Positions 33,401 through 61,432 of a stretch of DNA of 64,000 bases are shown in pieces. The notes beneath the pieces were generated by a model. The model saw only the letters and a program-made list of their open reading frames with translations. It ran no database searches and was not told where the DNA came from. Numbering within the stretch: the first letter of the stretch is position 1; each line of letters begins with the position of its first letter. The stretch comes from Kiritimatiellia bacterium (GTDB lineage: Bacteria > Verrucomicrobiota > Kiritimatiellia > RFP12 > UBA1067): assembly GCA_017652705.1 (NCBI GenBank), contig JAGCAM010000079.1, positions 11,475 through 75,474 on the forward strand, written 5' to 3'. The position numbers and the translations under genes were made by a program.

Positions 33401-33721
33401 CAGCACCACGTCGCACTTCGCCAGCACGTCTTTGACGCTCGGCTCCATTTCAACGCCCATCTCCTTCATCTGCCCGATGTATTTCGGGTAGTTGTTCGTC
33501 ACCGCGGGTATCGTGCGCGAGCCGTACTTGTACGCGGCCACGACCCGGAAATCTTTGAATATCTCGCGGTCGCGCTTGACGTTGATGTGCCTGGTGAACT
33601 CGGTGGCGTGCGACGTGTCGACGCCGATGACGCCGATCTTGATTTCGCCGGCCGTCGGGGCGGCCGCGGCCGCCGCCGCCGCGAGAAGTGCGATTGAGCG
33701 AAGTGGTCTGTCCATTTTCAT
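30401..33721 (-). CDS. fusion protein: Gfo/Idh/MocA oxidoreductase domain + DUF4838-like domain + CBM9-like domain (secreted)
   Basis: Start chosen at the ATG of MKMDRPLRSIALLAAAAAAAAPTAG (signal peptide; GGAG RBS). Residues ~30-340 carry Rossmann IGVIGVDTSHA and VFIDKPLA (EKP-type) motifs. The rest parallels the 24913..27669 protein (CNCKYCK, NWHYICWP, C-terminal VIDGKLDDACWKLAEA). Confidence 0.7.
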   Translation of the reverse strand: MKMDRPLRSIALLAAAAAAAAPTAGEIKIGVIGVDTSHATEFTRHINVKRDREIFKDFRVVAAYKYGSRTIPAVTNNYPKYIGQMKEMGVEMEPSVKDVLAKCDVVLLETQDGREHLAQAREVFASGKRVFIDKPLASDYQSATRIFDEARRVNANFFSCSALRWTSKVQAARKGELGVVRGVNYAAPSPLERTHSRFTWYGIHGFEPLVAVMGVGAESVSCFSNESNDFVAVRWRDGRFGGLRMMRGPGMWNYSGQAFTADKGVVDLGGYEGYAPMLEEILKFFKTGVKPFPSEETDEIFALMAAAEESGKRGGAVVRVDDVRRRVYHAQRAPMNVNARDLTPVKDFRWLGGAGATVALGSIPAMDIVCEDSRDGQFAAQFIASVIEDMTGARLRIVRECGGRPVTNAPAIYIGDVAATRRAGLATYQRERWGVDAHGFKVCVKDGSVYLCGARCDYAATDFAERALAVREYWDVKNGGRTVVKTYGLSLPAFSYSDKPVFAKRDLWPYEGNEWCRVWKNGDSHCGEHHVHAPGAWNRNTNLNFMFTRPEIFALTDDGKRATMPLLCYGNPRTLETYKERILAEIASGSPRGDITAPLAKCITVSQWDIAVFCNCKYCKAILARHPQENIAESRVSFSNVLWGYFTKELAKWAKKELPGWKIVILPYHNTTDIPDGVDFVEEGNVEAFLCTMPGLAMLKEKPVKEFQEQLIRDWARVTGRPVQNWHYICWPAETCQAPFIFAKTAQRHYRDTREITAGSFLNGRYPVDRLVLSAYCWMRLLWNPELNIDSVYDTFADRMFGPAAKQLREIVRLQETGWERQWKVSRVNNRNIYTISYPRAEVLRMEGLFAEAEQLCAGDELLMKRIAYYKGGFTQFFKESAEYAAGSAFAPLMMQKVSQDPVIDGKLDDACWKLAEAQEFTGARKEGTTPKEGTSIRAVWTPTAVTFGMDCRESDMANLCNDGPTGNYWVNDCVEALIDLGGDYGAFGRVIINASGKFEWYDGFKKAQGPEGVRCAIAKNEKSWSIELYVPYKPMIALYKDAVHPTTSGGMSWTGNFIRLRRGDKTIRPLNKRTPHTTEMSRLHTRGNGYNSDPGAFSKFIFREN

Positions 33722-33876
33722 GACTCCGGTTAGTGGTTGTGGCTGTTCGATTCTCAAAGTCCAGAGCTGCAGACTCTGCCGTTCTGAAAGATATTTGTCG
33801 CGGAAACCGCGGGTGTGAAGCCAGCCTTCGGCGATGTTGGGCTTTTCAACATACCGCTCTCATCGCCGCACCGCCG

Positions 33877-35287: not shown

Positions 35288-36685
35288 TCACGGCTTCGGC
35301 CAGTACTTGTCGGTGTATTTGGTGGGTATGCCCACTTCGCCCCGCTCGAAATTGTTCGCCAGTATACGCCAGCCGAGGTCCAGCGCGTCGATGAGGTCGA
35401 TGTTCACCGAGAGATCCATCATCTCGCGCTCGAATTCCACGCCGTACTTCAGCAGCTTTTCGTCCCATTCCGACATTTTGAAGCCCATCGACTGCTTTTC
35501 GACCGTTTCCTTGTACTGGGCGTAAAGCTTGATCATCGCGTCCATGATCGTGCGGTGGTCTTCGCGCGTGCAGTTGTTCGCGCGGAACCAATCCTTCTCT
35601 TTCGCCGAATTCTCCCCGGCTTCGGCCTGACCGAGCACCGACCGCTGCAGCGTCGAATACGACTTGCCCTTGTTTACCTGCTGCTTCAGGCGCGACAGCG
35701 AGCCGAAAGGCTCGATGCGCCCGTTTTTGAGGTAGAACTGGCCTTCCGTGATGTAGCCGGTGTTGTCCGGCACCGGGTGGGTCACGTCGTCGCCCGGCAT
35801 CGTCGTCACCGCGAGAATCGTTATCGAGCCCGCGCCTTCGAAATCCACCGCCTTCTCGTAGCGGGCGGCGAGCTGGGAATAGAGATCGCCCGGATACCCG
35901 CGGTTGGAAGGTATCTGCTCCATCGTGATCGCGATTTCCTTCAGCGCGTCGGCGAAGGACGTCATGTCGGTCAGCAGCACCAGCGCGTCTTTGCCGTCGA
36001 GCGCGAACTTCTCCGCCACCGCCAGCGATATGTCGGGCACCAGCACGCACTCCACGGTCGGATCCGCCGCGGTGTGCACGAACATCACCGTCTTCGCGAG
36101 CGCGCCCGATTTGTCGAGGGTGTCGCGGAACTTCAGGTACTCGTCGTGTTTGAGCCCCATGCCGCCGATGACGATCACGTCAGAGTCGGCCTGCAGCGCG
36201 ATGCGCGCGAGCAGCTCGTTGTAGGGCTCGCCGGCGCGCGAGAAAATCGGCAGCTTCTGCGATTTCACCAGCGAGTTGAACAGGTCGATCATCGGTATGT
36301 TCGTGCGCACCATCTCGTGCGGCATCACCCGTTTCGCCGGGTTCACCGACGGCTGGCCGATCGGCGATGGATTCTCGGTTATCTCCGGCCCGCCGTCGCG
36401 CGGCGCCCCCGAACCCGTGAACGCCCGGCCGAGCAGATCGTAGGAAAAGGGAACTTTCATCGTCTCGCCGAGAAACCGCACGCTCGCCGCGGTGTCGACA
36501 CCGCGCGCCCCCGCGAAAATCTGAATCGTCACGTTCGGCCCGTCCAGCTTGATGACCTGCGCAAGCGACGTTCCAGCCCGCGAGACCACCTCCGCTATCT
36601 CGTGGTACTTGACACCCTCCGCGCGGAGCGTCGCCACCGAACCGGCCAGATCGTCTATTTTGTGATAAACAGTGTTGTTGAACAT
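35288..36685 (-). CDS. divergent V-type ATPase subunit B homologue (orphan; no other V/A-ATPase subunit genes adjacent)
   Basis: 465 aa. B-subunit hallmarks with a degenerate P-loop ([16 protein letters not shown] vs canonical GQKLP[VI]FSGSGLPHNE), [10 protein letters not shown] and [22 protein letters not shown] ~35-aa insertion lies near residues 330-365. Flanked by tsaE (upstream) and a GH109-like gene (downstream). Confidence 0.7.
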
Positions 36686-39921: not shown

Positions 39922-40455
39922 TCAACGGGCCGGATTCTCGAATTCCCTGACGACGTCAAGCAGCTGCTCGGCGAGATCGGGGTCTGCCTCGAAGAGGTTG
40001 ACGTTTTCGGAATAAGTGTAACTGGAAAGGTTCGCCTTGGCGGCGATGAACCGGTCGGTGACCTCTTTGCCGGCCGACTTGCCGGTTTTTTCACGGTCGA
40101 GCAGGCCGAAATTCACGAGATTCTGGAAAATATCGTTGGCGGCTTCGGGGGTGATCTGCAGACGATGGGATTTAATGTCGCTCCAGACGTCGCTATTATA
40201 GCGCTTCGCGAAATCGTTCGAGACGAGCTCGCTGGAGCCCTTTTTAACCTCCACGAGTCCGTTGCCGTAAATCATGACGGAGACTCTGCGCGCGGGTTCG
40301 CGGCGGAGATTGTAGTAATGTACGGCCACCCAGTTGAGGGAGCTTTGAGACACCGTTATGTAGGGGTCGACCCAGAACGGGCCGCAACCCTGCGGCAGAA
40401 CGGCGGCCGAGACGGCCAAGGCCAGCAATACGGCGGTCAGCGGCGGTTGGCGCAT
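39922..40455 (-). CDS. hypothetical lipoprotein
   Basis: Start chosen at MRQPPLTAVLLALAVSAAVLPQGCG (lipobox). No recognisable domain. Overlaps the 3' end of coaX. Confidence 0.5.
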   Translation of the reverse strand: MRQPPLTAVLLALAVSAAVLPQGCGPFWVDPYITVSQSSLNWVAVHYYNLRREPARRVSVMIYGNGLVEVKKGSSELVSNDFAKRYNSDVWSDIKSHRLQITPEAANDIFQNLVNFGLLDREKTGKSAGKEVTDRFIAAKANLSSYTYSENVNLFEADPDLAEQLLDVVREFENPAR

Positions 40456-41189
40456 ATCAGGCCGGCTCCGTGGAGAGTGAGGGTGGGATCGATCGTGAAC
40501 GGCAGATCGAGGTCTTTCAGCACCCAGCCGGCGAAACCTCCGGTGGCGACGAGCTTGAAGTCGCATCTGAAATTGCGGCGGAGCTGGGCCGCGATTTCAC
40601 GCACCATGCCGCGGTAGCCGACAAGGGCGCCGAAACGCATCGCGCCGGCGGTGGAACGGCCGATTTTCGGCGCCCGGCCGGCGCCGATTTTCATGCGCGG
40701 CAGTTTCGCCGCGCGTTCGAAAAGATAGTCGCGCATCAGAGGAAAGCCCGGCGCGATCACCCCGCCGCGCCAAACCCGGTCGCCGGTGACTACCGCCGCG
40801 GTAAGGGCGGTGCCGAAGTCCATCACCAGCACCGGGGCGCCGTAGCGCGAAACTGCGCCGGCGGCGTCGGCGAGACGGTCGGCGCCGATCGTAGCGGGGT
40901 TCGGGTAGTCGAGAACTATCGAAGCGCCGCCGACGCGCCTTGTGAAATCCCGGTGCGACACCGGTTTGAAGTCGAAACCTGCCCGGGCCGAAAACTCGGC
41001 CCAGGCGCGGTCCGCCGCGGGCACGACCGAGACGTAGGCGAAGCGCTCGGCTTTCGGCGCGAGGCGCGACGCGGCGGCGATCGCCGCGTCACCAGCTCCG
41101 TCGAAGTGCTTCACGCAGCTCACACGGCCGTCGGACCACAGTCCAACGGCCGTCGAGGTGTTGCCCACGTCTGCGACGAGAACCCTCAC
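40437..41189 (-). CDS. coaX: type III pantothenate kinase
   Basis: GTG start giving (M)RVLVADVGNTSTAVG. Bvg-accessory-factor/CoaX fold motifs (MDFGTALT, VATGGFAG). The GTG overlaps the upstream TGA (GTGA). Confidence 0.8.
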   Translation of the reverse strand: MRVLVADVGNTSTAVGLWSDGRVSCVKHFDGAGDAAIAAASRLAPKAERFAYVSVVPAADRAWAEFSARAGFDFKPVSHRDFTRRVGGASIVLDYPNPATIGADRLADAAGAVSRYGAPVLVMDFGTALTAAVVTGDRVWRGGVIAPGFPLMRDYLFERAAKLPRMKIGAGRAPKIGRSTAGAMRFGALVGYRGMVREIAAQLRRNFRCDFKLVATGGFAGWVLKDLDLPFTIDPTLTLHGAGLICANRR

Positions 41190-42688
41190 AGCGCCTTGAT
41201 GAAGATGTTGCGCCACTCGGTCGGATCGCCGTGGCACTGCAGCTCGATCTGCTCGCTCGCCGGCACCGGTTTGTCCCGCTGCCACAGGTTTTCAAGCACG
41301 GTGTTGTCGACGACGAGTTCGCCGTTCAGCCAAACCGACACCTTGTCACCGCGCATGATCACGTGGAAACGATTCCAGTCGCCCACCTGCCGGTCGGCGA
41401 TTTTAAGTGCCTTCGAGAGATTGCCGGTCTTGGCCGTGTTGTTGTTGTAAAGGCCGCCGGAACCGATGTGCCACTGGTTGTGGGCGTCCCAGATCTGCAC
41501 CTGGGGCACACCGCGGAGGTAAAGCCCCGAGTCGCCGGTGATGGACATGATGCGCCAGTCGCACCACATTTCGAAATCGCCGTAATTGCGCTTGGTGGCG
41601 AGGGAATATCCGCCGCGGTAGCCGTCGAAGAAGAGGTTGCCGTTCCTGACATGCCAGTGCTCGTCGCGGCCCTTGTCGGCGATTTTCTGCATTTCGGCGT
41701 TCTTTTCGGCGGTGGCGGCCGCGCGCGTCGCGGGCTTGTCGAAACCGCCTTCGGTCGTGACGCCCTTCCACATCTTAGCGATCTGGCCGGGGCAGCCGTC
41801 GAAGTAGGTCTCGAAACCGGCGGGCGCGGCCATCTTCTGACGCGGACAGACTTCGCCCATCTTCGCGTCGTCGGGAAGCGGCTTGATGCGGATGTTCTTC
41901 CATTTCACGTTGCTGCCGTGGCCGAGCCAGCCGATGCGGCCGCGCCGGTTGTGGAGACCGGGGTGTTTGCAGTGGTCGGGAGTGTCGCCGTCGCCCTTGA
42001 ATTTCGAGAGGTCGGCCTTGGTGATCAGATAGCCGTTGAGATAAACCTCGATCTCGCTGCCGATGACCTTGACTTCCTCGAAATTCCACATGCCGGGTTT
42101 GCGCACGTAGCTGCCGCCGCCGGTGAAGTTTTTCTCCTTGCCCCAGATCTGCTTGTCGACGTTGTCGCGCAAAGACGGCACTACGCCGTAGACCGAACCG
42201 GTGTACTGGTAGGGCTTAAGCTTGTCGACCTTGTTCGAAGCGTCGTAGTAACTCGAACCGCCGTCGTCGAGCAGCTGCAGCTCGCACATCGCGTGGTACG
42301 CCGCGTCCTTGTCGGGGTCGGAGATGCGTATGCCGAGACCGTTGTTGCCGTTCGGCGGCATGGCGAACTCGAAGCGGAGTATGAAATTGCCGAACTCCTT
42401 CGCGGTGACGAGATCGCCGCGCTGACCCGGGGGCAGTTTGCGGTCGGGGAAGCACTGCAGCACCCCCGGTTCCTTCGGATCTACCCCGTACATGGCGGTG
42501 GCGCCCTGCCACCCCTCGAGGTCGTAGCCGTTGAAGAGCGACACGAAACCTTCGTTCACCGAATCGGGATAGACCCGTCCGCACTCGCAGGAAGGCGCAC
42601 ACGCGCCCTTCTCCGCGCTGTTCAAACCGCAGCAACCCGCGGTCGCCAGAACCGCGGCGCCCGCCGCGGCGATAGTTTTGATTTTCAT
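41186..42688 (-). CDS. lipoprotein with two tandem DUF1080 (3-keto-disaccharide hydrolase-like) domains
   Basis: Start chosen at MKIKTIAAAGAAVLATAGCCG (ATG overlaps the nadC stop as ATGA; GGAGG RBS). Domain 1: FNGYDLEGWQG...NGLGIRISD...WNFEEVKVIGSEIEVYLNG. Domain 2: HWHVRNGNLFFDGY...DSGLYLRG...WNRFHVIMRGDKVSVWLNG. Confidence 0.75.
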   Translation of the reverse strand: MKIKTIAAAGAAVLATAGCCGLNSAEKGACAPSCECGRVYPDSVNEGFVSLFNGYDLEGWQGATAMYGVDPKEPGVLQCFPDRKLPPGQRGDLVTAKEFGNFILRFEFAMPPNGNNGLGIRISDPDKDAAYHAMCELQLLDDGGSSYYDASNKVDKLKPYQYTGSVYGVVPSLRDNVDKQIWGKEKNFTGGGSYVRKPGMWNFEEVKVIGSEIEVYLNGYLITKADLSKFKGDGDTPDHCKHPGLHNRRGRIGWLGHGSNVKWKNIRIKPLPDDAKMGEVCPRQKMAAPAGFETYFDGCPGQIAKMWKGVTTEGGFDKPATRAAATAEKNAEMQKIADKGRDEHWHVRNGNLFFDGYRGGYSLATKRNYGDFEMWCDWRIMSITGDSGLYLRGVPQVQIWDAHNQWHIGSGGLYNNNTAKTGNLSKALKIADRQVGDWNRFHVIMRGDKVSVWLNGELVVDNTVLENLWQRDKPVPASEQIELQCHGDPTEWRNIFIKAL

Positions 42689-43590
42689 TTTGTCCTCCAT
42701 TCCAATGTTAAATCTATGGAACCCGCCGAGTGGGTGAGGCAGCCGAGGGATATGGCCGTCACGCCGGTCGCGGCGACTTTGCGGGCGGTCGCCAGGGTGA
42801 TGCCGCCGGACGCCTCGGTCTTAACTCTGCCGCGGCACATGGCGACGCAGCGCTTCATGTCCGCGCACGACATGTTGTCGAGCATGATCCATTCCGGCAG
42901 CGCCTTGAGGGCGCTCGCGCACTCGCGCGGCGTTTCAACCTCCACCTCCACCGCGAGCCGCGGAAACTTCTTTCTGGCGGCGGCGACGGCGAGGTCAAGC
43001 GCGTCGGGATCGCCGCCGCGCCAGAGCCGGCGGTGGTTGTCTTTGATCAGCACCCGGTCGAACATGCCGAACCGGTGGTTCGAACCTCCGCCGCACAGAA
43101 CGGCGTATTTGTCGAACATCCTGAGCCCGGGGGTGGTCTTGCGGGTGTCGAGTATGACCGTGCCGTAGTGCGCCGTGGCGTCGACGAACTTCTTCGTGAG
43201 CGTGGCCGTCGCGCACATCCGCTGCATGAAATTGAGCGCGGTCCGCTCCGCCGCGAGAATCGATCTCGCTCTGCCGCGGAAGACGAGAATCGGCTCGCCG
43301 CCGCGCACCGTTGAGCCGTCCTTTTTGAGTATCCGCACTTTCACGGCATGATCCACCGCCTTGAAAACCGCAGCGGCCACGGTCGCGCCGGCGACGACGC
43401 AGCCGGCCCCTCGCGCGTATATCTCGCCGTCGGCGAAGACGTTCTCCGGCACCAGCGCCTCCGAAGTCGCGTCAATGCGCCGCCGGGACGCCGAACCGCG
43501 GCCTCCGGGCACGAGGTCTTCGTCCAGCGCGCGCAGGACGGCCTCTTTGGCCGGCGCGGAGCGCATAACGTCCTTCATCTTCGCGGCCAT
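42685..43590 (-). CDS. nadC: nicotinate-nucleotide pyrophosphorylase (quinolinate phosphoribosyltransferase)
   Basis: 301 aa. ...ERTALNFMQRMCATAT...ILDTRKTTPGLR...VLIKDNH motifs. Confidence 0.85.
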   Translation of the reverse strand: MAAKMKDVMRSAPAKEAVLRALDEDLVPGGRGSASRRRIDATSEALVPENVFADGEIYARGAGCVVAGATVAAAVFKAVDHAVKVRILKKDGSTVRGGEPILVFRGRARSILAAERTALNFMQRMCATATLTKKFVDATAHYGTVILDTRKTTPGLRMFDKYAVLCGGGSNHRFGMFDRVLIKDNHRRLWRGGDPDALDLAVAAARKKFPRLAVEVEVETPRECASALKALPEWIMLDNMSCADMKRCVAMCRGRVKTEASGGITLATARKVAATGVTAISLGCLTHSAGSIDLTLEWRTK

Positions 43591-43591
43591 C

Positions 43592-43807
43592 TCAGGCGGG
43601 CATCAGAAATTCCCAATGCTGCCAGAGAATGTAAGTCAGAATGCCGGCTGCGGCGAGGGCGATCAGCCCCGCGACGCCGGCGCAGGCCGCCGCCTTGCCG
43701 CCCCCTGACTTGCGCACGGTCGCGGGGTCGACGGGGTCGAGCCGCAGACGGTCCGCGATTGACACCCCGCCGGGCGCCTTGACCTTCATCGTCTTTTTTA
43801 TTTTCAT
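43592..43807 (-). CDS. small (71-aa) single-pass membrane protein, first gene of the nadC-containing operon
   Basis: MKIKKTMKVKAPGG...AAACAGVAGLIALAAAGILTYILW. Its stop is 1 nt from the nadC start. A perfectly spaced leaderless promoter lies immediately upstream. Confidence 0.45.
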   Translation of the reverse strand: MKIKKTMKVKAPGGVSIADRLRLDPVDPATVRKSGGGKAAACAGVAGLIALAAAGILTYILWQHWEFLMPA

Positions 43808-43813
43808 GTCTTC

Positions 43814-43822
43814 ATTATACCA
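43814..43822 (-). promoter_or_regulatory. extended -10 element TGgTATAAT, 6 nt upstream of the small-ORF ATG, with -35 TTGATT (18-nt spacer)
   Basis: Minus-strand gggTTGATTtccggcggcgattagTGgTATAATgaagacATG. Confidence 0.5.
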
Positions 43823-43827
43823 CTAAT

Positions 43828-43853
43828 CGCCGCCGGAAATCAACCCGGCGGCG
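43828..43853. repeat. 9-bp perfect inverted repeat (cgccgccgg-N8-ccggcggcg) overlapping the -35 element
   Basis: Read from sequence. Lies 23 nt downstream of the TIM-barrel gene stop and over the -35 of the nadC-operon promoter. Candidate terminator hairpin or operator. Confidence 0.7.
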
Positions 43854-43875
43854 ATCGTGGTTTGCGGAATCACGC

Positions 43876-44868
43876 TCAGCGGAACCCCTTGTTCCGCAGG
43901 AATTGGTAGCTCGGCAGCACCGCCGAGAGGTCTTCGAAGTGGCGTTCGCACTCGACCACGTACCACTTGACCCCGTCGGCTTCTGTCGCCACGATGAGCC
44001 CGTCCCAGTCGACCGGGACTGCCCCGGGCCTGCCGGGCTGGCCGAGAATGGCGTCGAACTCTTTGACGTCCTTGCCCATGCCGTTCTCCTTAGCGTGGAT
44101 CGTGGGCGAGCGGTGCGGGTATTTGCGGAACTGCTCCTTGGGGTCGACGCCCGCGCAGGTGGACCAGCCGACATCCTGCTCCATGCAGACGTTCTGGCTG
44201 GTGTTGGAGAAGAAATAATCCCAGAACGAAGTGCCGTCGGTCATCTTGATGCCGTGTTCCCACGTGTGGTTGTGCAGGCCGATGCGGCAGCCGTACTTCG
44301 CCGCGACTTCGGCGCCCTTGTTGTAGAGTTCGACGAGACGCTTGGTGAATTCGTCGATCTCCTTCGTCGGCTGGCAGGTTTCGCCGCCCTGGCCGGTGGA
44401 CCATTTCGCGCCCGGGGGAATGTTGCCGCCGCCGGGGCAGATGATGAGGTTGTTGCCGTAGGCGAGGTTGAAATCGCACGTCGCCTTCATCACGTCGGGG
44501 TTGAACGACCATTCTGCGGTGTTGAAACCGAATTCGCCGTTGCCGACGTGGGTTCCGCAGGCGACGAGCCCGCTGTCGGCGAGCATCTTGCGCAGCGCGA
44601 TCGCGTCGTTGCCGTAGTAGCCGGCGAATTCCACGCCGGTGTAGCCGATCGCCGCGACGTCGTCGAGCGCCTTGGCGAGACCGGCGGCGGGAACAGTTTC
44701 CTTGCCGTCCTTGTCTTTTCTGCCGCCGATGTAGGCGTGGATGGAGTAGAGCTGCAGCGCGAGCCGCGCCTGAAGGGATCTGCCGCTAGAGCAGATGCAG
44801 CCCGGCAGCGCGACCGCGGCTCCGCCGGCGCCGATCGCCGACAGAAACTGTCTTCTTGATACGTTCAT
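43876..44868 (-). CDS. TAT-exported sugar phosphate isomerase/epimerase-like (xylose isomerase-like TIM barrel) protein
   Basis: 330 aa. Twin-arginine signal MNVSRRQFLSAIGAGGAAVALPG. TIM-barrel AP-endonuclease-2/xylose-isomerase-like fold motifs. Confidence 0.75.
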   Translation of the reverse strand: MNVSRRQFLSAIGAGGAAVALPGCICSSGRSLQARLALQLYSIHAYIGGRKDKDGKETVPAAGLAKALDDVAAIGYTGVEFAGYYGNDAIALRKMLADSGLVACGTHVGNGEFGFNTAEWSFNPDVMKATCDFNLAYGNNLIICPGGGNIPPGAKWSTGQGGETCQPTKEIDEFTKRLVELYNKGAEVAAKYGCRIGLHNHTWEHGIKMTDGTSFWDYFFSNTSQNVCMEQDVGWSTCAGVDPKEQFRKYPHRSPTIHAKENGMGKDVKEFDAILGQPGRPGAVPVDWDGLIVATEADGVKWYVVECERHFEDLSAVLPSYQFLRNKGFR

Positions 44869-44917
44869 CTTTATTTTCCTTTCTTTTATTTTGGGTGAAT
44901 CTGGTCAAATCCTGTTG

Positions 44918-46315
44918 TCACCAGCCGGAGAGACGCGGCAGATTGAGCCGCCCGTTGGCCGGGGTCGATCCGTCGAACCTGCCGGCGGAGGCGTTCCAGA
45001 CAAGCTTTTTGCCCGAGTCGAAGAGCGCCGCGACGCCGAGCAGCGAACACTGCGTCATCGCGCCGGCGTACACGAAATCGCTGCCGACTTTCGGCCCGCC
45101 CGCGACAGCCCTCACGAACTCGATGTACGGCTTGTCGTCGGGTGCGTCGCCCGGTATGCGCTCGTACTTGCGCGGGGGCAGCGCGTTGTCGGCGCGCATC
45201 TTTTCAAGAGTGCGGTCCGGCAGCAGCCGCAGGAAGTTCGCCCCGTGGTGGCCGTACTCGATCACCCCCTTCGTGCCGTAGACGAACGCGCCGTTGCACA
45301 TCCAGTTGCGGCCGGCGCGGGCCTCCTTGCTGTTGTACGGCGGAAAGTACTTCATGTCGTCAAGATACTGCGAAGGCTTCGGCACGTCTTTGCACGCGAC
45401 GCCGTCGTACCATACGAGCTTGAACGGTTTGCCGTCCGGCTTCGTGTAGCAAAACGTCGTCTTCACCCCTTTGGGGAACGTGTCACCGTGAACTTCGGGC
45501 CGCCAAGAACCAACCACGTCGGCCTGCACGCTCAAAGGCAGACCGAAGCCGAACGTCCAGAAAATCGGATCCATCAGATGGCAGCTCCAGTCGCCCAGCG
45601 TGTTGCAGCCGTACATCGTCCAGCACCGCCACGTTCCCGGACAGTACTTCGGGTAGTACGGCCGGTGCGGAACCGGCCCCTGCCACTGGTTCCAGTCGAG
45701 CGTGGATGGAACCTCCCACTTCTTTTTGAGCTCGGCGAGGTCGTCCATGTACGAATACACGGCCGGGCACCAGATGTGCGCCTCGGTGACTTCCCCGATG
45801 AGCCCGGCTTCAATCCATTCGCGGAAGTCGCGGATGGTGTCGAAGGCGTGGCCCTGGTTCATCGCCTGGGTGACGAGTTTCGGATTCTCCTTCGCCGCCT
45901 TGAGCATCGACTCCATTTCACTGAAGCTCTGGCAAAGCGGCTTTTCGCACTGCACGTGCTTGCCCCGCTTCAGGCATTCGACCGCCATGGTGGCGTGCCA
46001 GTGGTCGGGCGTGCCGATCAGCACCGCGTCGATGTCGCGGTCCATTTTGTCGAGCATGGTGCGGTAGTGGGAAAAGAACGGCACGGCGGAGTGGGCCTTG
46101 CGCATCGCCTCGCTGCGCTTGAGGTCGACGTCGCAGAGCGCCACGAACTTCGCGCCGGCTTTTTCCAGCCCGCGCATGTCGTCGGCAGGTCGGCCCCCGC
46201 AGCCGATCGCCGCCATCTGCACCGTCTCATTGGCGCGGTAGGCAGTCGCACAGCCAGAAAATATCATCGGGAACCCGAACGCCGAAGCGCCCCGTATGAA
46301 TTCACGTCTGTTCAT
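44918..46315 (-). CDS. TAT-exported Gfo/Idh/MocA oxidoreductase (glycoside 3-dehydrogenase-like / GH109-like)
   Basis: 465 aa. MNRREFIRGASAFGFP twin-arginine signal. Rossmann AAIGCGGR and EKP (VQCEKPLC). Confidence 0.75.
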   Translation of the reverse strand: MNRREFIRGASAFGFPMIFSGCATAYRANETVQMAAIGCGGRPADDMRGLEKAGAKFVALCDVDLKRSEAMRKAHSAVPFFSHYRTMLDKMDRDIDAVLIGTPDHWHATMAVECLKRGKHVQCEKPLCQSFSEMESMLKAAKENPKLVTQAMNQGHAFDTIRDFREWIEAGLIGEVTEAHIWCPAVYSYMDDLAELKKKWEVPSTLDWNQWQGPVPHRPYYPKYCPGTWRCWTMYGCNTLGDWSCHLMDPIFWTFGFGLPLSVQADVVGSWRPEVHGDTFPKGVKTTFCYTKPDGKPFKLVWYDGVACKDVPKPSQYLDDMKYFPPYNSKEARAGRNWMCNGAFVYGTKGVIEYGHHGANFLRLLPDRTLEKMRADNALPPRKYERIPGDAPDDKPYIEFVRAVAGGPKVGSDFVYAGAMTQCSLLGVAALFDSGKKLVWNASAGRFDGSTPANGRLNLPRLSGW

Positions 46316-46360: not shown

Positions 46361-49300
46361 TCACTTCACCGTGACGGTCTTCTCGGACGAGACTCCGGTC
46401 ATCACGTCGGTTACGACGATCTTCCAGCGGTCGACGCTTTCGTTGAACGCCACGCGGAAGTCGCACGACGCCCTGCCCCCCTTCGCGTCCACCAGCTTGA
46501 ACTTGACGGGCGCGAGGCGCTCGAAGCTTTCGCCCTCCGGCGGCAGCATTTCGAAGCGCAGCACGTGGGTGACGGGCTTCGCCCCCGCGTCGCCGGCGAC
46601 GACCGCCGCCTCCACGTGCAGGTCGGAACCCTTCGCCGCCGAATCCGGCGCGTTCACCTCCACCGCCTTCACCTCGTAGGGCAGCAGCGCGTAGAAGCAC
46701 TCGTCGAGCCCGTTGAACACCACCGGTATCGCGTCGGTGCGGCCGACGGGTCTGCCCGCGCGGATGTCGTAGACCCAGTTCGTCGAGGCGAGTTTGACCT
46801 CCGCCTTCATCGGGAAGCGCTCGCAGCTGCGGCCCGACTTCTCCACTCCGAGGCACACCGCGCCGTCGCGCGTGAAGCGCGTGAATTCGGCCGGCACCGT
46901 CACTCCGTCGGCCACCGCCCGCGCGAACGGCCGGTGCCCGCAGGCCGCGAAAACGCGGCGGAACGCCTCGTTCGCCGCGCCGAGTTCGCCGCGCCCGTCC
47001 AGAAACGGTATCGCAGCCATGTTGATGTTGAACAGCACCGCCCTGCCCTTGCCGAATTCGCGGACGAAAAACGCCTCCGCGCCGGACGCCGCCCGGGCAT
47101 GCGCCTTCGCGCCGGACGCCCGCAGCGACGCGTCGACCAGAACCCCCTTGATCTCCACCGGCGCGGCGGCGAGCCCCTCCACGCGCAGCGTCGCGTGCTC
47201 GACCTTCGCCTCCGGCGAGAGCCGCTTCACGCCGAAGAGTTCGTCCAACGGAGGCTTCGCGTGGCGGACACCGTCCACCCCGTGCGTCGCGATGCGCGCG
47301 TCGGCGATGACGCTGCCGCCGTTCCTGACGAACGAAATTATCTCCTCGATCTCCTTGTCGCTCAGGATCTGCGTGTAGCCGAGCACCAGCGTCTTGACGC
47401 CTTTCCTGAGGTCGCCCTTCTCGATCATTTCGCTCGAAATGCCGTCCCACTGGAAACCGTGCGCGACCACCAGCCCTTCAAGCGTGCCGCGGGCCTGGCC
47501 GTGGGTGCTCATCTCTTTCACGAGCGGGCTGAGATGGCCGGAGTTGCGGCTCACCAGCACGCGGATGCCGTCGTTCTCGCGCTTGGAACGGGTGGTGAGC
47601 GCCACCGGCCCGCGCATGATTTCGCGGTACGTCGCGAACATCCACCCCGCGCGGCCGGGGTTCACCGACCCGTCGCCTTCGACCATGTAGCTGCCCAGCC
47701 AGAACCAGCTGAAATTGCACCCGTCGAGAAGGCCGTGCCATACCTGCCGTTCGCGAATCGGCCTCTTTACCTTCTTGCCGCCGTACACGCCGATGCACTC
47801 GCCGATGTAGCGGTGCGGAACTGCCCGCGCGAGCTGGATGTCTTCGCTGCCGGCGTAGGGGCAGACCGTGTTGAGGTGCTTGAGCACGTCGTACTTGATG
47901 TTGCCGAGCGTCGACGCGCCGAACCCGAAGCCGATCGACCGGTCGCGCGAACAGACCCCGCGCGCGATCGCCGCCGCCTGGTCGACGAACGCGTCCTCGA
48001 GGTACGTCTGCCGGTCGATCGCCGGCGCAAACACGCCGTCCTTCTGCCGTTCCTCTATCAGCTTCTGCTCGATTTCGAGAAAATCCTTCACCGACGTCTT
48101 CCACACGGCGTTGAGCTTGTCGACCGTGCCGTACTTCTTCTTCAGCCAGAAGAGGAAGTTCACGTACTGCGGCGACTCGGCGGGTTTCGCCGCCTTCACC
48201 GCCTCGAGCGTGACGTCTTTCCAGTCGGCGAACTTCGTGTTCAGATGCGCGTTCATCACTTCCACCCTGTCGTACGCGTCGCGCATCGCCGCGACGACCG
48301 TCGGCAGTTCGTTCGGCGTCAGGTTCTCGACCATCTTCGCCACCGAATCGCGGTCGGTTCCGAACAGCCGGAAGTCCTTCACCCCCTGCCTGCGCAGGTT
48401 CTCGGCCTTGCGCTCGCGGTACGCCGGCACCCAGTCGGGTATGGTGTTCTGAATTACGCTCGGTGCACCCGAGTCGTCGCCGAGCGAAATGAAGCGCCCG
48501 TTGATTTTCCGACACTGCTCGGCGTGTTCCGCGTAGCGGCGTTCGAGATGCTTCAGCCACCAGCGGCTTGAAATCGAGCAGCCCCTGTCGGAGGTGCTGC
48601 CGGGTATGCGGTCGCGGATGACCGGGTCGCCGCCGCGAAAGCACGATCTGACGTCGCTGGTCTCCCACAGATCAATGCCGCAGTACTGGAAGTATGCAAG
48701 GCGAAGCTCAGCGAATTCGCCGCTGCCGCACGGGTCGGTGGTGAAAATGCGGTAGTCCGCGCCAGCGTCGCCGCGGTGGAGAAAACAGGTCAGCCGCCTG
48801 ACGTCGAAAACCCGGTCGCCTTCAAGGTAGACGTCGATGAAGTTGCAGCTCCAGTCGAGAAACTTCTGGTCGAAGACGATTTCGACCGAATCCGCCGAGG
48901 CGTCGACCGCCGCCTCCACCCGCGAAATGACGCGGTTGCGCACGTCGCGCAGATCGCCGCGCACTTTGAGCCCGCCCGCCGACGCGCCGTTCACCGCCGC
49001 CCTGACCGCGATCTTCTCGCCCGGGTTGAACGTGCCGCGCCCGGCCGAGAACCGAACTTCGCCGAACTCCGGCGGCGCGATCTCCGCGCGGCAGTAGGCG
49101 CCGCCGCAGCCGCACTTGACCGGCTTGCCTGGCTTGATCACCAGTTCGCCTGAAGCGAAATCGAGCAGCTTGCCGCCCGCCTCGAGCCGCGCGTCGACCG
49201 TGTAGCGGCCCGCGCCGAGCCGCGGCGCCGCGAGCGTCACGTGGTTGGTGCCCGCCGGCAGATCCACCGCGGGGCGGTCCGGGCCCGCCAGAAGCCTGCC

Positions 49301-51379
49301 GAACGTGTCGCGTACCCGCCAGACGACTTCGCCCTTCCACGCCGGGCCCGCGGTGGTCAGCGTCGCCGCCGCACCGGTGCCGCCGTCCTGCACCGGAGCG
49401 CCTACTTCGAGGCAGCGGCGTTTGCCGCGCATGCCCAGCCCCGTCATCACCGCGCGGGCCGCCGCGGCGAGGCAGTATTCGTCTTCGTAGGCGATGTCCG
49501 GCGTGAGCGTCCAGCCGGGCGTGATCAGCGTCGTCAGGCACCACCCGGCCGCCCTGCCCGGATTGTAGCAGGCGAACGAACCCTTGCCGAACGCCGCGGT
49601 CGCGACGCCGGGCAGCCGGCAGTCGATCGACTTTTCAAGATCGAACCTCCCGCCGCCTTCCGGACGCACGAGTTTCACCATCCCCTTCGGGTTGCCCCGC
49701 GCGAGTTCTTTTTCGTGCTCGACTTCGCGGCCGAACACGTTGTTGCCGTTCACCACCACCACCTTCGCCCCTTCGAGCATCCGCCCGTAAAGCCAGCACT
49801 GCAGCTCCATCGGCCACGCATCGATCGACGTGCCGAGAAAGACGAACTGTTCGTACGGCGTCTCCTTGAGCATCCGCTCGAGCATCTTGCGCTTCTCCGG
49901 CGCGAGCATCAGGCCTTCGTAGAAATAGTCGCTCGTCTTGCCGAGACCGCGGTCGAAACACTGAAAAACGTCCGCGTCGACGTCAAGCCGGTTCATCAGC
50001 GCCCACGCCTCCCACGCGCCGTGCTGGTGGGCGCAGACGAGCGTCTTGCCGGACGCCCGCTCCGCGAGGTTCTTCGCCCACGGGAACAGCGTCGGTTCGC
50101 TGTTCCGGCGTTCCCACGGCTTCGGCGTTCGCTCCGGCTCCTCGGCGAATTTGTCCGGCGCGTCGGCCGGCGGGTTGATCTTCACCGGCACGCGCACTTT
50201 CTTCTCCGTGCGCATCAGGTTGCGCACGCACTCCCAGTAGGCGTTTTCGAACGCGGCGTCCCACGCTTTGTTCTTGCGTTCCAGCTCCGAAACCGCCGCG
50301 ATGTCCAGCTTCGCCGCGGCAAGCACGTTCGACCTGGCCGTCTCGTATTCGCCCCGCTGGCTGGATATCCGCCTGAGGACGTCGCCGAAGAACCCCTTTC
50401 TCGGCGGCTCGGTTATTGATGCTACGAAATCGTCGAGACGCTTGAGTTTCGCCCCGCAGCCGGCTATGCACTCCTTGCCCTTGGCGAGATAGCTGAGCCG
50501 CGACTCGCGGCCGTGGTCGACCACCACGTATTCCGAATCGGTCTGCACGTAGATCGTGCGCCGGTCGAGATCAGGATACGCCAGCCGCAGCCCGTCAACC
50601 GGGTTCTTCGGCGTCTTCTCCACCAGCACGCACTTGCCGTAGAGCTCGGCGTTGTGGTGGGTCTGCCCCTGGGTCGACCAGCCCAGCACCGCCATCGCTT
50701 CGCGCGTCGAGTCGGGCGGCAGTCCGGAACCAGGTTTCGGATACCACGTCTTCCAGAGCCTGATACGCGCGGGCTCCATGCCGAAAATGTAGCCGACTTT
50801 CGCTTTCATCTCCAAGTGCGTCAGCGCGAAGCGCGCCTCCACCTGCCAGTAGTCCTTGCCGATCGTGTACGCCTTGTCCCAGTCGGAGTTGAGCCCGTAG
50901 TTGCTGTCGGCGAGAATGCCCCAGCCGAAGTCGTAGTACCAGATGATCTCCTTCTCGTCGGTCGGGTTCAGCCAGATCTGGAACTTCGTGTGGCGGTCGT
51001 TGTTGCCGTCGAGGTGCAGTTCGACGTTGTCCCGCCAGATGAAGTTCCGCCGGCGGTCGTTGCGCGCGTCGTTGAACCGCTTCATGTTCTCCGGGGTGTC
51101 CTCCCAGCAGGTGGCCAGCACGTAAAAGTACTTGTCGTCCCAGAGACACCTGAATTCGGTGCGCGGCGTCTTCCACCGCGTGTCGATGGAGACCGTCGTG
51201 CAGCCGAATTCCGTCAGCGGCACGGCGCGTTTCCAGTCGGCCTCGTCCATCTTGCCGTCGATGACGACGGGGGCGGTCGCCTTCTCGACGAAGTGCAGTT
51301 TGAAACTGTCGGTCGTCTTGTCGGCCGCCTGCGCGGCCGCCGCGATCGAAACCGCTGCCAGTATGGTCGTCTTTTTCAT
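46361..51379 (-). CDS. 1672-aa secreted protein with N-terminal CBM9-like domain and GH42-like (beta-galactosidase-like TIM barrel and trimerisation-like) region
   Basis: Signal peptide MKKTTILAAVSIAAAAQA. VIDGKMDEADWKRAVPLTEF (CBM9/DOMON-like). Central ...RYIGECIGVYGG... and ...KTLVLGYTQILSDKEIEEIISFVRNGGSVIADARIA (GH42 A4-domain-like). GGGGGAG RBS. Confidence 0.55.
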   Translation of the reverse strand: MKKTTILAAVSIAAAAQAADKTTDSFKLHFVEKATAPVVIDGKMDEADWKRAVPLTEFGCTTVSIDTRWKTPRTEFRCLWDDKYFYVLATCWEDTPENMKRFNDARNDRRRNFIWRDNVELHLDGNNDRHTKFQIWLNPTDEKEIIWYYDFGWGILADSNYGLNSDWDKAYTIGKDYWQVEARFALTHLEMKAKVGYIFGMEPARIRLWKTWYPKPGSGLPPDSTREAMAVLGWSTQGQTHHNAELYGKCVLVEKTPKNPVDGLRLAYPDLDRRTIYVQTDSEYVVVDHGRESRLSYLAKGKECIAGCGAKLKRLDDFVASITEPPRKGFFGDVLRRISSQRGEYETARSNVLAAAKLDIAAVSELERKNKAWDAAFENAYWECVRNLMRTEKKVRVPVKINPPADAPDKFAEEPERTPKPWERRNSEPTLFPWAKNLAERASGKTLVCAHQHGAWEAWALMNRLDVDADVFQCFDRGLGKTSDYFYEGLMLAPEKRKMLERMLKETPYEQFVFLGTSIDAWPMELQCWLYGRMLEGAKVVVVNGNNVFGREVEHEKELARGNPKGMVKLVRPEGGGRFDLEKSIDCRLPGVATAAFGKGSFACYNPGRAAGWCLTTLITPGWTLTPDIAYEDEYCLAAAARAVMTGLGMRGKRRCLEVGAPVQDGGTGAAATLTTAGPAWKGEVVWRVRDTFGRLLAGPDRPAVDLPAGTNHVTLAAPRLGAGRYTVDARLEAGGKLLDFASGELVIKPGKPVKCGCGGAYCRAEIAPPEFGEVRFSAGRGTFNPGEKIAVRAAVNGASAGGLKVRGDLRDVRNRVISRVEAAVDASADSVEIVFDQKFLDWSCNFIDVYLEGDRVFDVRRLTCFLHRGDAGADYRIFTTDPCGSGEFAELRLAYFQYCGIDLWETSDVRSCFRGGDPVIRDRIPGSTSDRGCSISSRWWLKHLERRYAEHAEQCRKINGRFISLGDDSGAPSVIQNTIPDWVPAYRERKAENLRRQGVKDFRLFGTDRDSVAKMVENLTPNELPTVVAAMRDAYDRVEVMNAHLNTKFADWKDVTLEAVKAAKPAESPQYVNFLFWLKKKYGTVDKLNAVWKTSVKDFLEIEQKLIEERQKDGVFAPAIDRQTYLEDAFVDQAAAIARGVCSRDRSIGFGFGASTLGNIKYDVLKHLNTVCPYAGSEDIQLARAVPHRYIGECIGVYGGKKVKRPIRERQVWHGLLDGCNFSWFWLGSYMVEGDGSVNPGRAGWMFATYREIMRGPVALTTRSKRENDGIRVLVSRNSGHLSPLVKEMSTHGQARGTLEGLVVAHGFQWDGISSEMIEKGDLRKGVKTLVLGYTQILSDKEIEEIISFVRNGGSVIADARIATHGVDGVRHAKPPLDELFGVKRLSPEAKVEHATLRVEGLAAAPVEIKGVLVDASLRASGAKAHARAASGAEAFFVREFGKGRAVLFNINMAAIPFLDGRGELGAANEAFRRVFAACGHRPFARAVADGVTVPAEFTRFTRDGAVCLGVEKSGRSCERFPMKAEVKLASTNWVYDIRAGRPVGRTDAIPVVFNGLDECFYALLPYEVKAVEVNAPDSAAKGSDLHVEAAVVAGDAGAKPVTHVLRFEMLPPEGESFERLAPVKFKLVDAKGGRASCDFRVAFNESVDRWKIVVTDVMTGVSSEKTVTVK

Positions 51380-55667: not shown

Positions 55668-55674
55668 GAAGTTA

Positions 55675-55683
55675 ATTCTACCA
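55675..55683 (-). promoter_or_regulatory. extended -10-like element TGgTAGAAT, 7 nt upstream of the ATG at 55667
   Basis: Minus-strand tTTGgTAGAATtaacttcATG. Confidence 0.35.
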
Positions 55684-55740
55684 AAATACGCCGCCAAGGG
55701 CAATAGCACGCGCCGGACGCGGTACGTCGGCGGCTGTCAC

Positions 55741-59799: not shown

Positions 59800-59813
59800 G
59801 ACCGGCCCTTCCG

Positions 59814-61373: not shown

Positions 61374-61432
61374 TTCCTTTTCAGTGTTTTCAATCGTGTT
61401 GTTTCATCCGTTGACGGTTGAGCCGCCGGCGG

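Follow-up and report, generated by a model that had tools for sequence, protein, structure and literature searches.

Three exported proteins of oxidative (3-keto) glycoside-cleavage families in a Kiritimatiellae bacterium, probable members of a dispersed toolkit

Three neighbouring genes on one strand encode what we judge, on balance, to be exported enzymes of oxidative (3-keto) glycoside cleavage, drawn from a dispersed toolkit rather than from a conserved dedicated operon. The trio adds new members to an already known pathway, of which it is an ordinary example; because relatives do not keep the three together, it is a new example of that pathway and not a fixed module. On this reading, gut and rumen Kiritimatiellae hold a large mix-and-match toolkit of this kind, and in the present genome three of its parts happen to have come to lie next to each other.

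The window (the whole stretch of DNA analysed, 64,000 nucleotides) comes from a Kiritimatiellae bacterium of gut or rumen. Glycoside hydrolases are plentiful in it. The original prediction placed a Gfo/Idh/MocA protein, a TIM barrel and a double-DUF1080 lipoprotein on one strand at 41186-46315; the coordinates are exact, from the Gfo gene start at 46315 to the DUF1080 gene stop at 41186, with all five genes (GFO_A, TIM_A, a 71-aa ORF, nadC and the DUF1080 lipoprotein) on the minus strand (Table 1). In Pfam the PF01408, PF01261 and PF06439 assignments of the trio all pass.

Table 1. Features of the locus, its flanks and the second cluster
Feature	Coordinates	Strand	Evidence
GFO_A, exported Gfo/Idh/MocA oxidoreductase, 465 aa, AL3/BT2158-like	44918-46315	-	Pfam, NCBIfam, PDB, Foldseek
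TIM_A, twin-arginine xylose-isomerase-like TIM barrel, 330 aa, AL1/BT2156-like	43876-44868	-	Pfam, PDB, AF2/Foldseek
Sigma-70-like promoter match TTGATT-18-TATAAT, extended TG	43814-43843	-	consensus match only
Small ORF, 71 aa (65 aa from 43789), C-terminal hydrophobic helix	43592-43807	-	ORF/gene calls
nadC, quinolinate phosphoribosyltransferase, housekeeping	42685-43590	-	TIGR00078 256 bits (cut-off 198); QRPTase_N, QRPTase_C
DUF1080x2, lipoprotein with two tandem DUF1080 (PF06439), 504 aa	41186-42700	-	Pfam, PDB
coaX, type III pantothenate kinase	40437-41189	-	PF03309; L001 gene calls
Giant secreted protein, 1672 aa	46361-51379	-	weak N-terminal CBM9-like match
Giant secreted protein, 1429 aa ORF (1415 aa as called)	51420-55709	-	no family match
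Second, tighter cluster (58558-62482): TIM_B, TAT-exported	58558-59847	-	Pfam
Second cluster: GFO_B	59814-61373	-	Pfam
Second cluster: DUF1080_B	61433-62482	-	Pfam

The dehydrogenase and the TIM barrel

GFO_A is, from its sequence, a putative glycoside C3 dehydrogenase. It carries PF01408 (74 bits) and PF19051 (GFO_IDH_MocA_C2), and its top NCBIfam model, matched over nearly its full length, is the glycoside 3-dehydrogenase BT_2158_fam at 221 bits; the window's other Gfo genes score 110, 83 and 0 bits with this model. An inositol- or glucose-fructose-type enzyme, which the original prediction had named as the finding that would tell against it, is not what we see; iolG scores 54 bits. The 221 bits fall below the BT_2158_fam cut-off of 750, so GFO_A is no equivalog; a true member (L133) reaches 876 bits. 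Its closest solved relative in a PDB sequence search is AL3 (8tdf; E 4e-45, runner-up 1e-12), and AL3 (8tdf/8tdh) also comes first in Foldseek, with TM 0.77-0.79 against about 0.5 for the others. The NAD-contact and catalytic residues are conserved, and AL3 Q161, D248 and H252 are matched by Q154, D242 and H246. Three of the six listed active-site/sugar-pocket residues differ, AL3 R192, W195 and Y349 being replaced by A185, Y189 and H357, and this altered pocket predicts that the substrate would be something other than simple glucosides.

TIM_A matches PF01261 at 38.5 bits (cut-off 31.1). Its top PDB sequence matches are 8tcd, 8tcs and 8tct (about 1e-11), and Foldseek with its AlphaFold2 model (pLDDT 85.8) is led by 8tct and 8tcd; by sequence and by fold, the leaders are the 3-keto-beta-glucopyranoside 1,2-lyases BT1/AL1. 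AL1 residues H103, H178, H180, D211, W214 and H237 correspond to H107, H199, H201, D232, W235 and H258 of TIM_A, and these six, all the active-site positions that could be checked, do not vary across 31 orthologs. We read TIM_A as a putative metal-dependent 3-keto-glycoside 1,2-lyase.

Twin-arginine export had been predicted for both proteins, and conservation bears this out: the motifs NRREF of GFO_A and SRRQF of TIM_A are invariant or nearly so in 32 and 31 orthologs, respectively, with R3, R4 and F6 of GFO_A invariant, and TIM_A also has a Pfam TAT_signal match. TIM_A is possibly lipidated too.

The known pathway breaks sugars apart by oxidation and elimination rather than by hydrolysis; its chemistry consists of oxidation, 1,2-elimination, hydration and re-reduction, and its enzymes are interchangeable between organisms and form no obligate complexes (10.1101/2024.03.25.586180). 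If the activities and substrate of GFO_A, TIM_A and DUF1080x2 follow this scheme and the three cooperate, GFO_A would fold with NAD bound in the cytoplasm, be exported by the Tat route and oxidise the C3 hydroxyl of the non-reducing-end sugar. The metal-dependent TIM_A would then perform 1,2-elimination on the 3-keto-glycoside, releasing the aglycone or the next sugar, and reduction of the 3-keto sugar by a Gfo enzyme would regenerate NAD+.

The tandem-DUF1080 lipoprotein

The third protein, which the L001 gene calls give in a 500-aa version (41186-42688), was correctly foreseen as a lipoprotein with two tandem DUF1080 domains: PF06439 matches it in two stretches (225 bits), and a lipobox-type ...AGC signal is present in it and in its orthologs. 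We assign it, with low certainty, as a putative 3-keto-glycoside lyase / 2-hydroxy-3-keto-glycal hydratase. The 3-keto-disaccharide hydrolysis that had been ascribed to DUF1080 has to be given up, the enzymes being lyase/hydratases (10.1101/2024.03.25.586180). The top PDB match is 4jqt, a two-domain protein, and BT2157 (8tda) is distant at 1.6e-6; of eight BT2157 signature residues, five are kept in domain 1 and four in domain 2.

This incomplete signature in both domains is one reason to consider that GFO_A and TIM_A alone form an oxidation-elimination pair, DUF1080x2 being unrelated to it: a glycan-binding protein, a hydrolytic (GH16-like) one, or an envelope protein cotranscribed with nadC and coaX. 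The DUF1080 family includes a reported endo-xanthanase/lichenase (PMC9007349), so that a lyase/hydratase role for DUF1080x2 is not assured, and is over-represented in Planctomycetes (PMC9007349, PMC5673643). Gene context points the same way. A 77% ortholog (L177) shares with the window the order DUF1080x2-coaX-AMP-binding-2HADH-TsaE, a downstream synteny seen in this one close ortholog, and upstream of it Gfo and TIM genes are absent; a further ortholog (L176) has neither a Gfo nor a TIM gene within 10 kb. A promoter-like site precedes the small ORF and nadC, and DUF1080x2 is probably part of the nadC/coaX transcription unit. However, domain 1 retains the core residues N134, E164, Q166, Y190 and H275, and a PF01261 TIM barrel, of a different subfamily from TIM_A, is fused to 19 of the top 120 DUF1080x2 homologs; in L178-180 a C2-type Gfo gene comes next, its start overlapping the end of the fusion gene by 4 bp. 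We hold an unrelated DUF1080x2 to be unlikely, and keep it among the three enzymes of the toolkit.

Gene neighbourhoods in the window and in relatives

The linkage of Gfo, TIM and DUF1080 genes is real at the level of families. The window holds five Gfo, two TIM and two DUF1080 genes among about 38; when gene order was permuted, one trio arose in 12% of permutations, a frequency owed to how common the three families are here, and two trios, as are present here, in 0.35%.

The original prediction spoke of a complete module, and as far as the presence of all three families goes this stands, but the particular trio is not kept in relatives. No TIM or DUF1080 gene adjoins any of the 35 GFO_A orthologs (253 kb of flanking sequence), and this includes the two closest (80% and 77% identity). 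What lies beside these orthologs varies: a Fic protein and a UvrD-type helicase occur, and glycoside hydrolases or secreted proteins of very large size are frequent; GFO_A itself floats free of fixed partners. The synteny check likewise fails to support a conserved module for TIM_A. By tblastn, the conserved neighbours of its orthologs are orthologs of GFO_B and TIM_B: a Gfo gene lies directly downstream in 17 of 49, of the GFO_B type, and a GFO_A-type gene in 0 of 49. In evolutionary terms TIM_A is partnered with the GFO_B/TIM_B cluster, at a distance of 14 kb in the window. In one relative (L047), four consecutive genes are DUF1080x2-TIM_C, Gfo, TIM_B and TIM_A.

These counts weigh against the view that the trio is a dedicated, co-regulated complete module that attacks a single complex polysaccharide together with the giant carbohydrate-binding proteins encoded upstream. 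Such a module might be suggested by the presence of all three families, by the neighbours of GFO_A orthologs just described, by a window rich in glycoside hydrolases, and by the shared direction and close spacing of the genes: gaps of 45 bp (giant protein to GFO_A) and 49 bp (GFO_A to TIM_A), and overlapping neighbours from nadC through coaX, which opens the coaX...tsaE array and shares 4 bp with the stop end of DUF1080x2. Almost all genes of the window point the same way, however, so gene direction says little about co-regulation.

The array is moreover broken by housekeeping genes, nadC and coaX, and by a promoter-like element. The insertion of nadC and a small ORF between the parts of the trio was rightly predicted (nadC by TIGR00078, the 71-aa ORF with its C-terminal hydrophobic stretch); the small ORF has no Pfam or NCBIfam match, its tblastn matches are confined to contigs of its own genome, and it may or may not be a real gene. 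The promoter-like site falls within the 68 bp that separate TIM_A from the small ORF, upstream of nadC; 7 kb contain two such sigma-70-like matches where shuffled sequence gives 1.0 +/- 1.0, so that the site is suggestive, not significant. The giant CBM9-bearing neighbours of the original prediction shrink to one of two, the 1672-aa protein, with a weak partial PF06452 match (28.5 bits, residues 40-134), one marginal PDB match and a Sec-type signal peptide; the 1429-aa protein, about 24% identical to it over about 315 aa, has no Pfam match. We consider a dedicated module improbable.

Least probable is that the Gfo/TIM pair, like other pairs of a Gfo enzyme and a TIM barrel, acts on non-glycoside or special substrates such as inositols (IolG/IolE), anhydrosugars including levoglucosan (LgdA/LgdB) or C-glycosides (DgpA/DgpBC), or that GFO_A works by itself as an NAD-dependent glycosidase of the GH109 type: the sugar pocket unlike AL3's and weak matches to iolG, iolE, levoglucosan dehydrogenase, GH109 and DgpA would fit, but these stand at 54 and 52 bits against 221 and at PDB E values of 1e-10 to 5e-6 against 4e-45, AL3 and BT1/AL1 lead the fold searches by wide margins, and the twin-arginine signals of both GFO_A and TIM_A do not suit the inositol and levoglucosan pathways, which operate in the cytoplasm.

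Comparison with known systems

The original prediction located the pathway in Bacteroides and Agrobacterium, and the Bacteroides part, the BT2156-2159 families, holds. The oxidative glycoside-cleavage clusters BT2156-BT2160 of Bacteroides thetaiotaomicron and AL1-AL5 of Alistipes (Liu et al. 2021, PMC8121099; Nasseri et al., 10.1101/2024.03.25.586180; PDB 8tcd/8tct, 8tda, 8tdf) comprise the same three families, all with export signals; the dehydrogenase has a Tat signal and the DUF1080 protein, as in AL2, a lipoprotein signal. They provide the closest solved relatives of GFO_A and TIM_A by sequence and fold, and the window proteins keep the residues for catalysis, NAD contact and metal. The window differs in a dehydrogenase below the BT_2158_fam equivalog cut-off, with A, Y and H at the pocket positions R192, W195 and Y349 of AL3; in a two-domain DUF1080 protein with a partial BT2157 signature in each domain; in having neither a SusR-type regulator nor another, cytosolic Gfo gene adjacent; and in its interposed nadC and small ORF, an arrangement not kept in relatives.

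The Agrobacterium part needs correction. The route of Agrobacterium tumefaciens uses an FAD-type glycoside 3-dehydrogenase (of another family), the beta-eliminase AtOGE, the hydratase AtHYD and a Gfo reductase, without a DUF1080 protein (PMC10628242; PDB 8bvk, 8ro4). Its logic of C3 oxidation, beta-elimination, hydration and reduction is the same, and its eliminase and hydratase, both xylose-isomerase-like TIM barrels (PMC10628242), are among the TIM_A fold matches at ranks 8 and 28; BT1/AL1 match better than AtOGE does (Foldseek 1e-17 versus 2.5e-13; AtOGE by sequence 1.2e-4).

The Gram-positive glucuronide-cleaving cluster P2B11 has two Gfo oxidoreductases and two TIM-barrel 'isomerases' and no DUF1080 (10.1101/2024.03.25.586180; PDB 8tdi). 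In sequence, 8tdi is only distantly similar (E 3e-11), and in the window TIM_A is separated from the GFO_B/TIM_B cluster, but the setting in which Kiritimatiellae conserve TIM_A orthologs, Gfo-TIM_A-GFO_B-TIM_B without DUF1080 (L014, L065), is alike. GFO_A matches DgpA and GH109 weakly (1e-10 and 5e-6), and no DgpB/C-type lyase was seen; DgpA/DgpBC and GH109 share with the route proposed for the window the initiation by a Gfo/Idh/MocA enzyme through sugar C3 oxidation, and DgpA is the best solved match (2.6e-19) of GFO_B in the second cluster.

Layout of the interval and the families it encodes

The flagged interval has exact limits, with a start codon at 46315 and a stop codon at 41186 on the minus strand, and G+C content is ~63% across the window. 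An ENA metagenome scaffold carries this locus too. Its genes are transcribed in the order GFO_A (a Gfo/Idh/MocA oxidoreductase), TIM_A (a xylose-isomerase-like TIM barrel), a 71-aa ORF, nadC and DUF1080x2 (a tandem-DUF1080 lipoprotein); these are tabulated with the other window genes that we discuss. All three enzyme families of the original prediction were upheld by Pfam, and the proposed export signals stand as well: twin-arginine motifs are invariant among orthologs, and lipobox-type signals are found on DUF1080x2 and its orthologs.

Genes of the flagged interval and other features of the window
Feature	Coordinates	Strand	Remarks
DUF4838 protein	7992-9929		
GH28-like protein	17676-18884		
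1749-aa protein	19131-24380	minus	GH127 (beta-L-arabinofuranosidase-like), DUF4838 and GH2 fused
DUF4838 protein	24913-27669		
GH3	27684-29771		
1118-aa protein	30401-33757	minus	N-terminal Gfo/Idh/MocA Rossmann domain and DUF4838
V/A-type ATPase B-like subunit	35288-36685	minus	ATP-synt_ab and ATP-synt_VA_C; between tsaE and a Gfo gene
DUF1080x2	41186-42700	minus	504-aa ORF (500 aa, 41186-42688, by the gene call in L001); PF06439
nadC	42685-43590	minus	above its equivalog cut-off
71-aa ORF	43592-43807	minus	third in transcription order
TIM_A	43876-44868	minus	330 aa; PF01261 and TAT_signal (Pfam)
GFO_A	44918-46315	minus	465 aa; PF01408 and PF19051 (Pfam)
Giant secreted protein	46361-51379	minus	1672 aa; almost no Pfam/PDB similarity
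Giant secreted protein	51420-55709	minus	~1415 aa; almost no Pfam/PDB similarity
ADP-ribosylglycohydrolase-family protein	55741-57267	minus	508 aa; directly upstream of the giants
TIM_B	58558-59847	minus	Tat-exported; no PDB sequence match
GFO_B	59814-61373	minus	best PDB match the C-glycoside 3-oxidase DgpA
DUF1080_B	61433-62482	minus	
M18 peptidase	62479-63837	minus	

The 68-bp gap past TIM_A contains a strong sigma-70-like promoter match (TTGATT-18-TATAAT with an extended TG), a match to consensus only, ending 7 nt ahead of the ATG of the small ORF; it hints at a separate transcription unit. A 7-bp inverted repeat (CCGCCGG...CCGGCGG) overlaps this match, both lying within 43814-43880 on the minus strand. 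No convincing minus-strand intrinsic terminator was found between the interval genes, terminator-like matches not rising above those in shuffled sequence.

Elsewhere in the window, the 1118-aa protein is an unusual oxidoreductase-glycosidase-like fusion. The ATPase B-like subunit stands alone, with no further ATPase subunits among the window ORFs scanned.

Relation to the characterised enzymes

The best NCBIfam model for GFO_A is BT_2158_fam (NF058561), which it matches near full length (residues 3-447) with 221 bits; iolG and the other NCBIfam models give at most 54 bits. This score is far under the curated 750-bit equivalog cut-off of NF058561, so that GFO_A is not called as an equivalog; as a positive control, the 495-aa Gfo protein of the environmental locus L133 passes at 876 bits. 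In a PDB sequence search the nearest solved relative is the Alistipes enzyme AL3 (8tdf; E 4e-45, runner-up 1e-12). An AlphaFold2 model (pLDDT 87), combining a Rossmann N-domain (PF01408) with a C2-type C-terminal domain (PF19051), matches AL3 by Foldseek at 7.5e-30 with TM 0.77-0.79, the runners-up among all other Gfo structures reaching 1e-16 and TM ~0.5. The alternative raised with the original prediction, an oxidoreductase of inositol or glucose-fructose type, was rejected: inositol-, levoglucosan- and GFOR-type assignments have scores at least 4-fold under those to BT_2158_fam/AL3. The N-terminus (MNRREFIRG...) has R3, R4 and F6 invariant in 32 orthologs, from which we infer Tat export, possibly to act in the periplasm with pre-bound NAD.

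The NAD contact Gln161 and the active-site residues Asp248 and His252 of AL3 correspond to Q154, D242 and H246 of GFO_A, all invariant in orthologs. The glucose-binding residues Arg192, Trp195 and Tyr349 are replaced by A185, Y189 and H357, in a mapping that was routed through L133 and has a 2-residue indel close to Y349. Among GFO_A orthologs the Arg192 position is Ala in most, the Trp195 position varies, with Phe and Tyr predominating, and the Tyr349 position is His in all. Because its pocket is altered in this way, GFO_A is predicted to act on substrates other than plain glucosides.

TIM_A scores 38.5 bits with PF01261, above the cut-off of 31.1. By sequence, the top three matches in the PDB (~1e-11) are the BT1/AL1 lyases 8tcd, 8tcs and 8tct, and Foldseek with its model (pLDDT 85.8) places BT1/AL1 lyases (8tct, 8tcd, 8tcr) at ranks 1-4. 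In the HMMER alignment to 8tcd (offset 23), the AL1 metal ligands His178, Asp211 and His237 are H199, D232 and H258 of TIM_A, and the substrate contacts His103, His180 and Trp214 are H107, H201 and W235; these six mappable active-site residues are thus all present, and they are invariant in 31 orthologs. The alignment stops before the AL1 catalytic Glu272, which lies above C2; the invariant E306 and E308, located where the last predicted strand of TIM_A ends, are putative counterparts.

DUF1080x2 matches PF06439 in two stretches (225 bits). Its best PDB match is the two-domain protein 4jqt, with the Bacteroides enzyme BT2157 (8tda) reaching only 1.6e-6, and by these matches it is more distant from the known enzymes than GFO_A or TIM_A. 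We compared it at the BT2157 channel residues E103, N134, E164, Q166, Y190, K245, Q273 and H275, using a BT2157 sequence reconstructed from HMMER output whose numbering was checked against these eight published residues. Five of them (N, E, Q, Y and H) are retained in domain 1, where Q273 has become L and where E103 and K245 fall in loops that align poorly. In domain 2 four remain (Q166, Y190, Q273 and H275), N being replaced by D and E by Q.

In the characterised systems, the tightly bound NAD of BT2158/AL3, a Gfo-type enzyme exported through Tat, serves to oxidise C3; the 3-keto-beta-glucoside 1,2-lyase BT2156/AL1 is a TIM barrel that depends on Co2+; and the DUF1080 protein BT2157/AL2 is a 3-keto-alpha-glucoside lyase and 2-hydroxy-3-keto-glucal hydratase (PMC8121099; 10.1101/2024.03.25.586180). 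BT2157/AL2 is not a hydrolase, which corrects the 3-keto-disaccharide hydrolysis listed in the original prediction (10.1101/2024.03.25.586180). By analogy, GFO_A would oxidise glycosides to 3-keto intermediates, TIM_A would perform elimination on these, and DUF1080x2 would perform elimination or hydration. It is plausible that the region encodes periplasmic enzymes for glycoside cleavage through 3-keto intermediates.

Gene neighbourhoods in the window and in relatives

The interval was originally described as holding a complete module. Besides the flagged trio, the window has another, more compact one (58558-62482) and three further Gfo genes, and gene-order permutations with the window's own family counts gave one trio in 12% and two trios in 0.35%. 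Because of these two frequencies, we take the clustering of the families as real, and the flagged trio by itself as not compelling.

First, we examined GFO_A. No TIM or DUF1080 neighbour is found beside its orthologs on three long contigs (67%, 55% and 51% identity), beside any of 35 orthologs on metagenome contigs (253 kb of flanking DNA), or beside the two closest orthologs (80% and 77% identity), and a conserved GFO_A-TIM_A operon was rejected on these grounds. Pfam shows that seven large proteins flanking GFO_A orthologs are heterogeneous (giants with no Pfam match, F5/8C, M12 peptidase, NPCBM, UvrD helicase) and include no common partner.

Second, we examined TIM_A, in an ortholog set of 53 species-level genome loci. 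A gene of the GFO_B type, with 55% identity or more, lies directly downstream of the TIM_A ortholog in 17 of 49 cases and TIM_B directly upstream in 16 of 49; a GFO_A-type neighbour occurs in none of the 49, and any DUF1080 match at only three of the 53 loci. Two relatives (L014 and L065) have the order M18 peptidase, Gfo, TIM_A, GFO_B, TIM_B, whereas in the window the M18 peptidase is followed by DUF1080_B, GFO_B and TIM_B; TIM_A therefore appears to have split off from, or moved out of, its usual cluster in this genome. The clustering is not conserved across related genomes, and with the trio not kept together in relatives the claim of a complete module is sustained only in part.

Third, downstream of DUF1080x2 come coaX, a small ORF, genes for an AMP-binding enzyme and a 2-hydroxyacid dehydrogenase, and then tsaE. 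The same coaX...tsaE array lies downstream of its 77% ortholog, which is without upstream nadC, TIM and Gfo genes, and another ortholog has neither a Gfo nor a TIM gene within 10 kb. Among its 120 closest homologs, 19 are fused to a C-terminal PF01261 barrel, giving proteins of ~765 aa; fused orthologs (P0269, P0315, P0352 and others) are 70-76% identical to DUF1080x2. A C2-type Gfo gene follows the fusion with a 4-bp overlap in L178-L180 (10001-13650), and in L047 (4916-10831) the fusion, a Gfo gene, TIM_B and TIM_A stand in one row. The fused barrel belongs to a third PF01261 subfamily (closest PDB entry 3tva) that is absent from the window; its assignment to the TIM_A type was rejected, BLASTP being insignificant against both TIM_A and TIM_B. 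As judged from these homologs, the fusion connects the orthogroup of DUF1080x2 with TIM barrels and Gfo proteins as families, and not with TIM_A and GFO_A specifically. We found no description of this natural lyase/hydratase-TIM fusion in the literature searched. A reading in which Gfo and TIM form a pair to which the DUF1080 lipoprotein is unrelated is, in our estimate, unlikely; in its favour, one DUF1080 member has been reported as an endo-xanthanase/lichenase (PMC9007349).

Another reading makes the trio a dedicated module acting with the adjacent giants on one complex polysaccharide. The giants, said in the original prediction to bear CBM9, share ~24% identity across ~315 residues; one of the two does have a partial 28.5-bit CBM9 match, but the other matches no family. 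Sequence searches of Pfam and the PDB yielded essentially nothing as to their identity, and tblastn found no homology between them and the large proteins flanking GFO_A orthologs. The giants may be functionally related to the trio, adjacency being the sole link, and we consider the dedicated module distinctly improbable. Unrelated giants without Pfam matches adjoin GFO_A orthologs elsewhere (L003, L121). Non-glycoside substrates or GH109-like chemistry we regard as very improbable.

A proposed dispersed toolkit and its known counterparts

On our best reading, the trio comes from an expanded toolkit whose dispersed and shuffled state is typical of Kiritimatiellae from gut and rumen; the trio is not a conserved operon. 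In these bacteria, all three families occur in many divergent copies that are exported, with catalytic residues kept and the sugar pocket altered. GFO_A, TIM_A and DUF1080x2 may still cooperate, since the characterised enzymes form no obligate complexes and are swappable between systems (10.1101/2024.03.25.586180). A more specific proposal, which we hold to be quite a long shot, is that the GFO_A type is a Kiritimatiellae-specific glycoside 3-dehydrogenase branch with a remodelled pocket, placed beside giants and glycoside hydrolases rather than lyases, that would prime unusual end residues (for example, substituted or non-glucose) of complex host or plant glycans in trans, leaving the cleavage to be finished by TIM-barrel and DUF1080 lyases, in some cases fused to one another, from a common pool in the periplasm. 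If true, this phylum would possess a modular alternative to classical glycosidases on a genome-wide scale.

The oxidation-elimination-hydration route was only recently resolved, in human-gut Bacteroidota, and it can cut linkages that resist ordinary glycosidases; with this locus, the route probably extends to an uncultured group that has been little studied. No paper linking Kiritimatiellae with Gfo/Idh/MocA proteins or these enzymes was found in the literature searched. Ours is a case of a known pathway with fresh members, and the most useful additions are the DUF1080x2-TIM fusion of relatives and the demonstration of how poorly adjacency predicts partnership in this lineage. Because its parts are dispersed and reordered here, and fused in some cases, gene adjacency alone is insufficient for calling complete modules, and assigning partners requires comparative synteny or experiments.

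The closest known system to the flagged region is BT2156-2159/AL1-4. The BT2156-2160 locus is a contiguous TIM-DUF1080-Gfo-Gfo operon with its own regulator, whereas the flagged region, with its order Gfo, TIM, small ORF, nadC, DUF1080x2, is not contiguous in this sense and has no second Gfo gene or regulator adjoining the trio; in synteny the region differs from BT2156-2160-type loci, in arrangement as in conservation among relatives. A canonical cluster, Gfo(528)-Gfo(495)-DUF1080(264)-TIM(328), does occur on the environmental contig of L133 (3427-8619). The conserved context of TIM_A resembles the cluster of P2B11, a Gram-positive fosmid with two Gfo genes, two TIM barrels and no DUF1080. 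The Agrobacterium route has the chemistry in common, but its dehydrogenase is of the FAD type, and it uses two TIM barrels (AtOGE and AtHYD) and a Gfo reductase.
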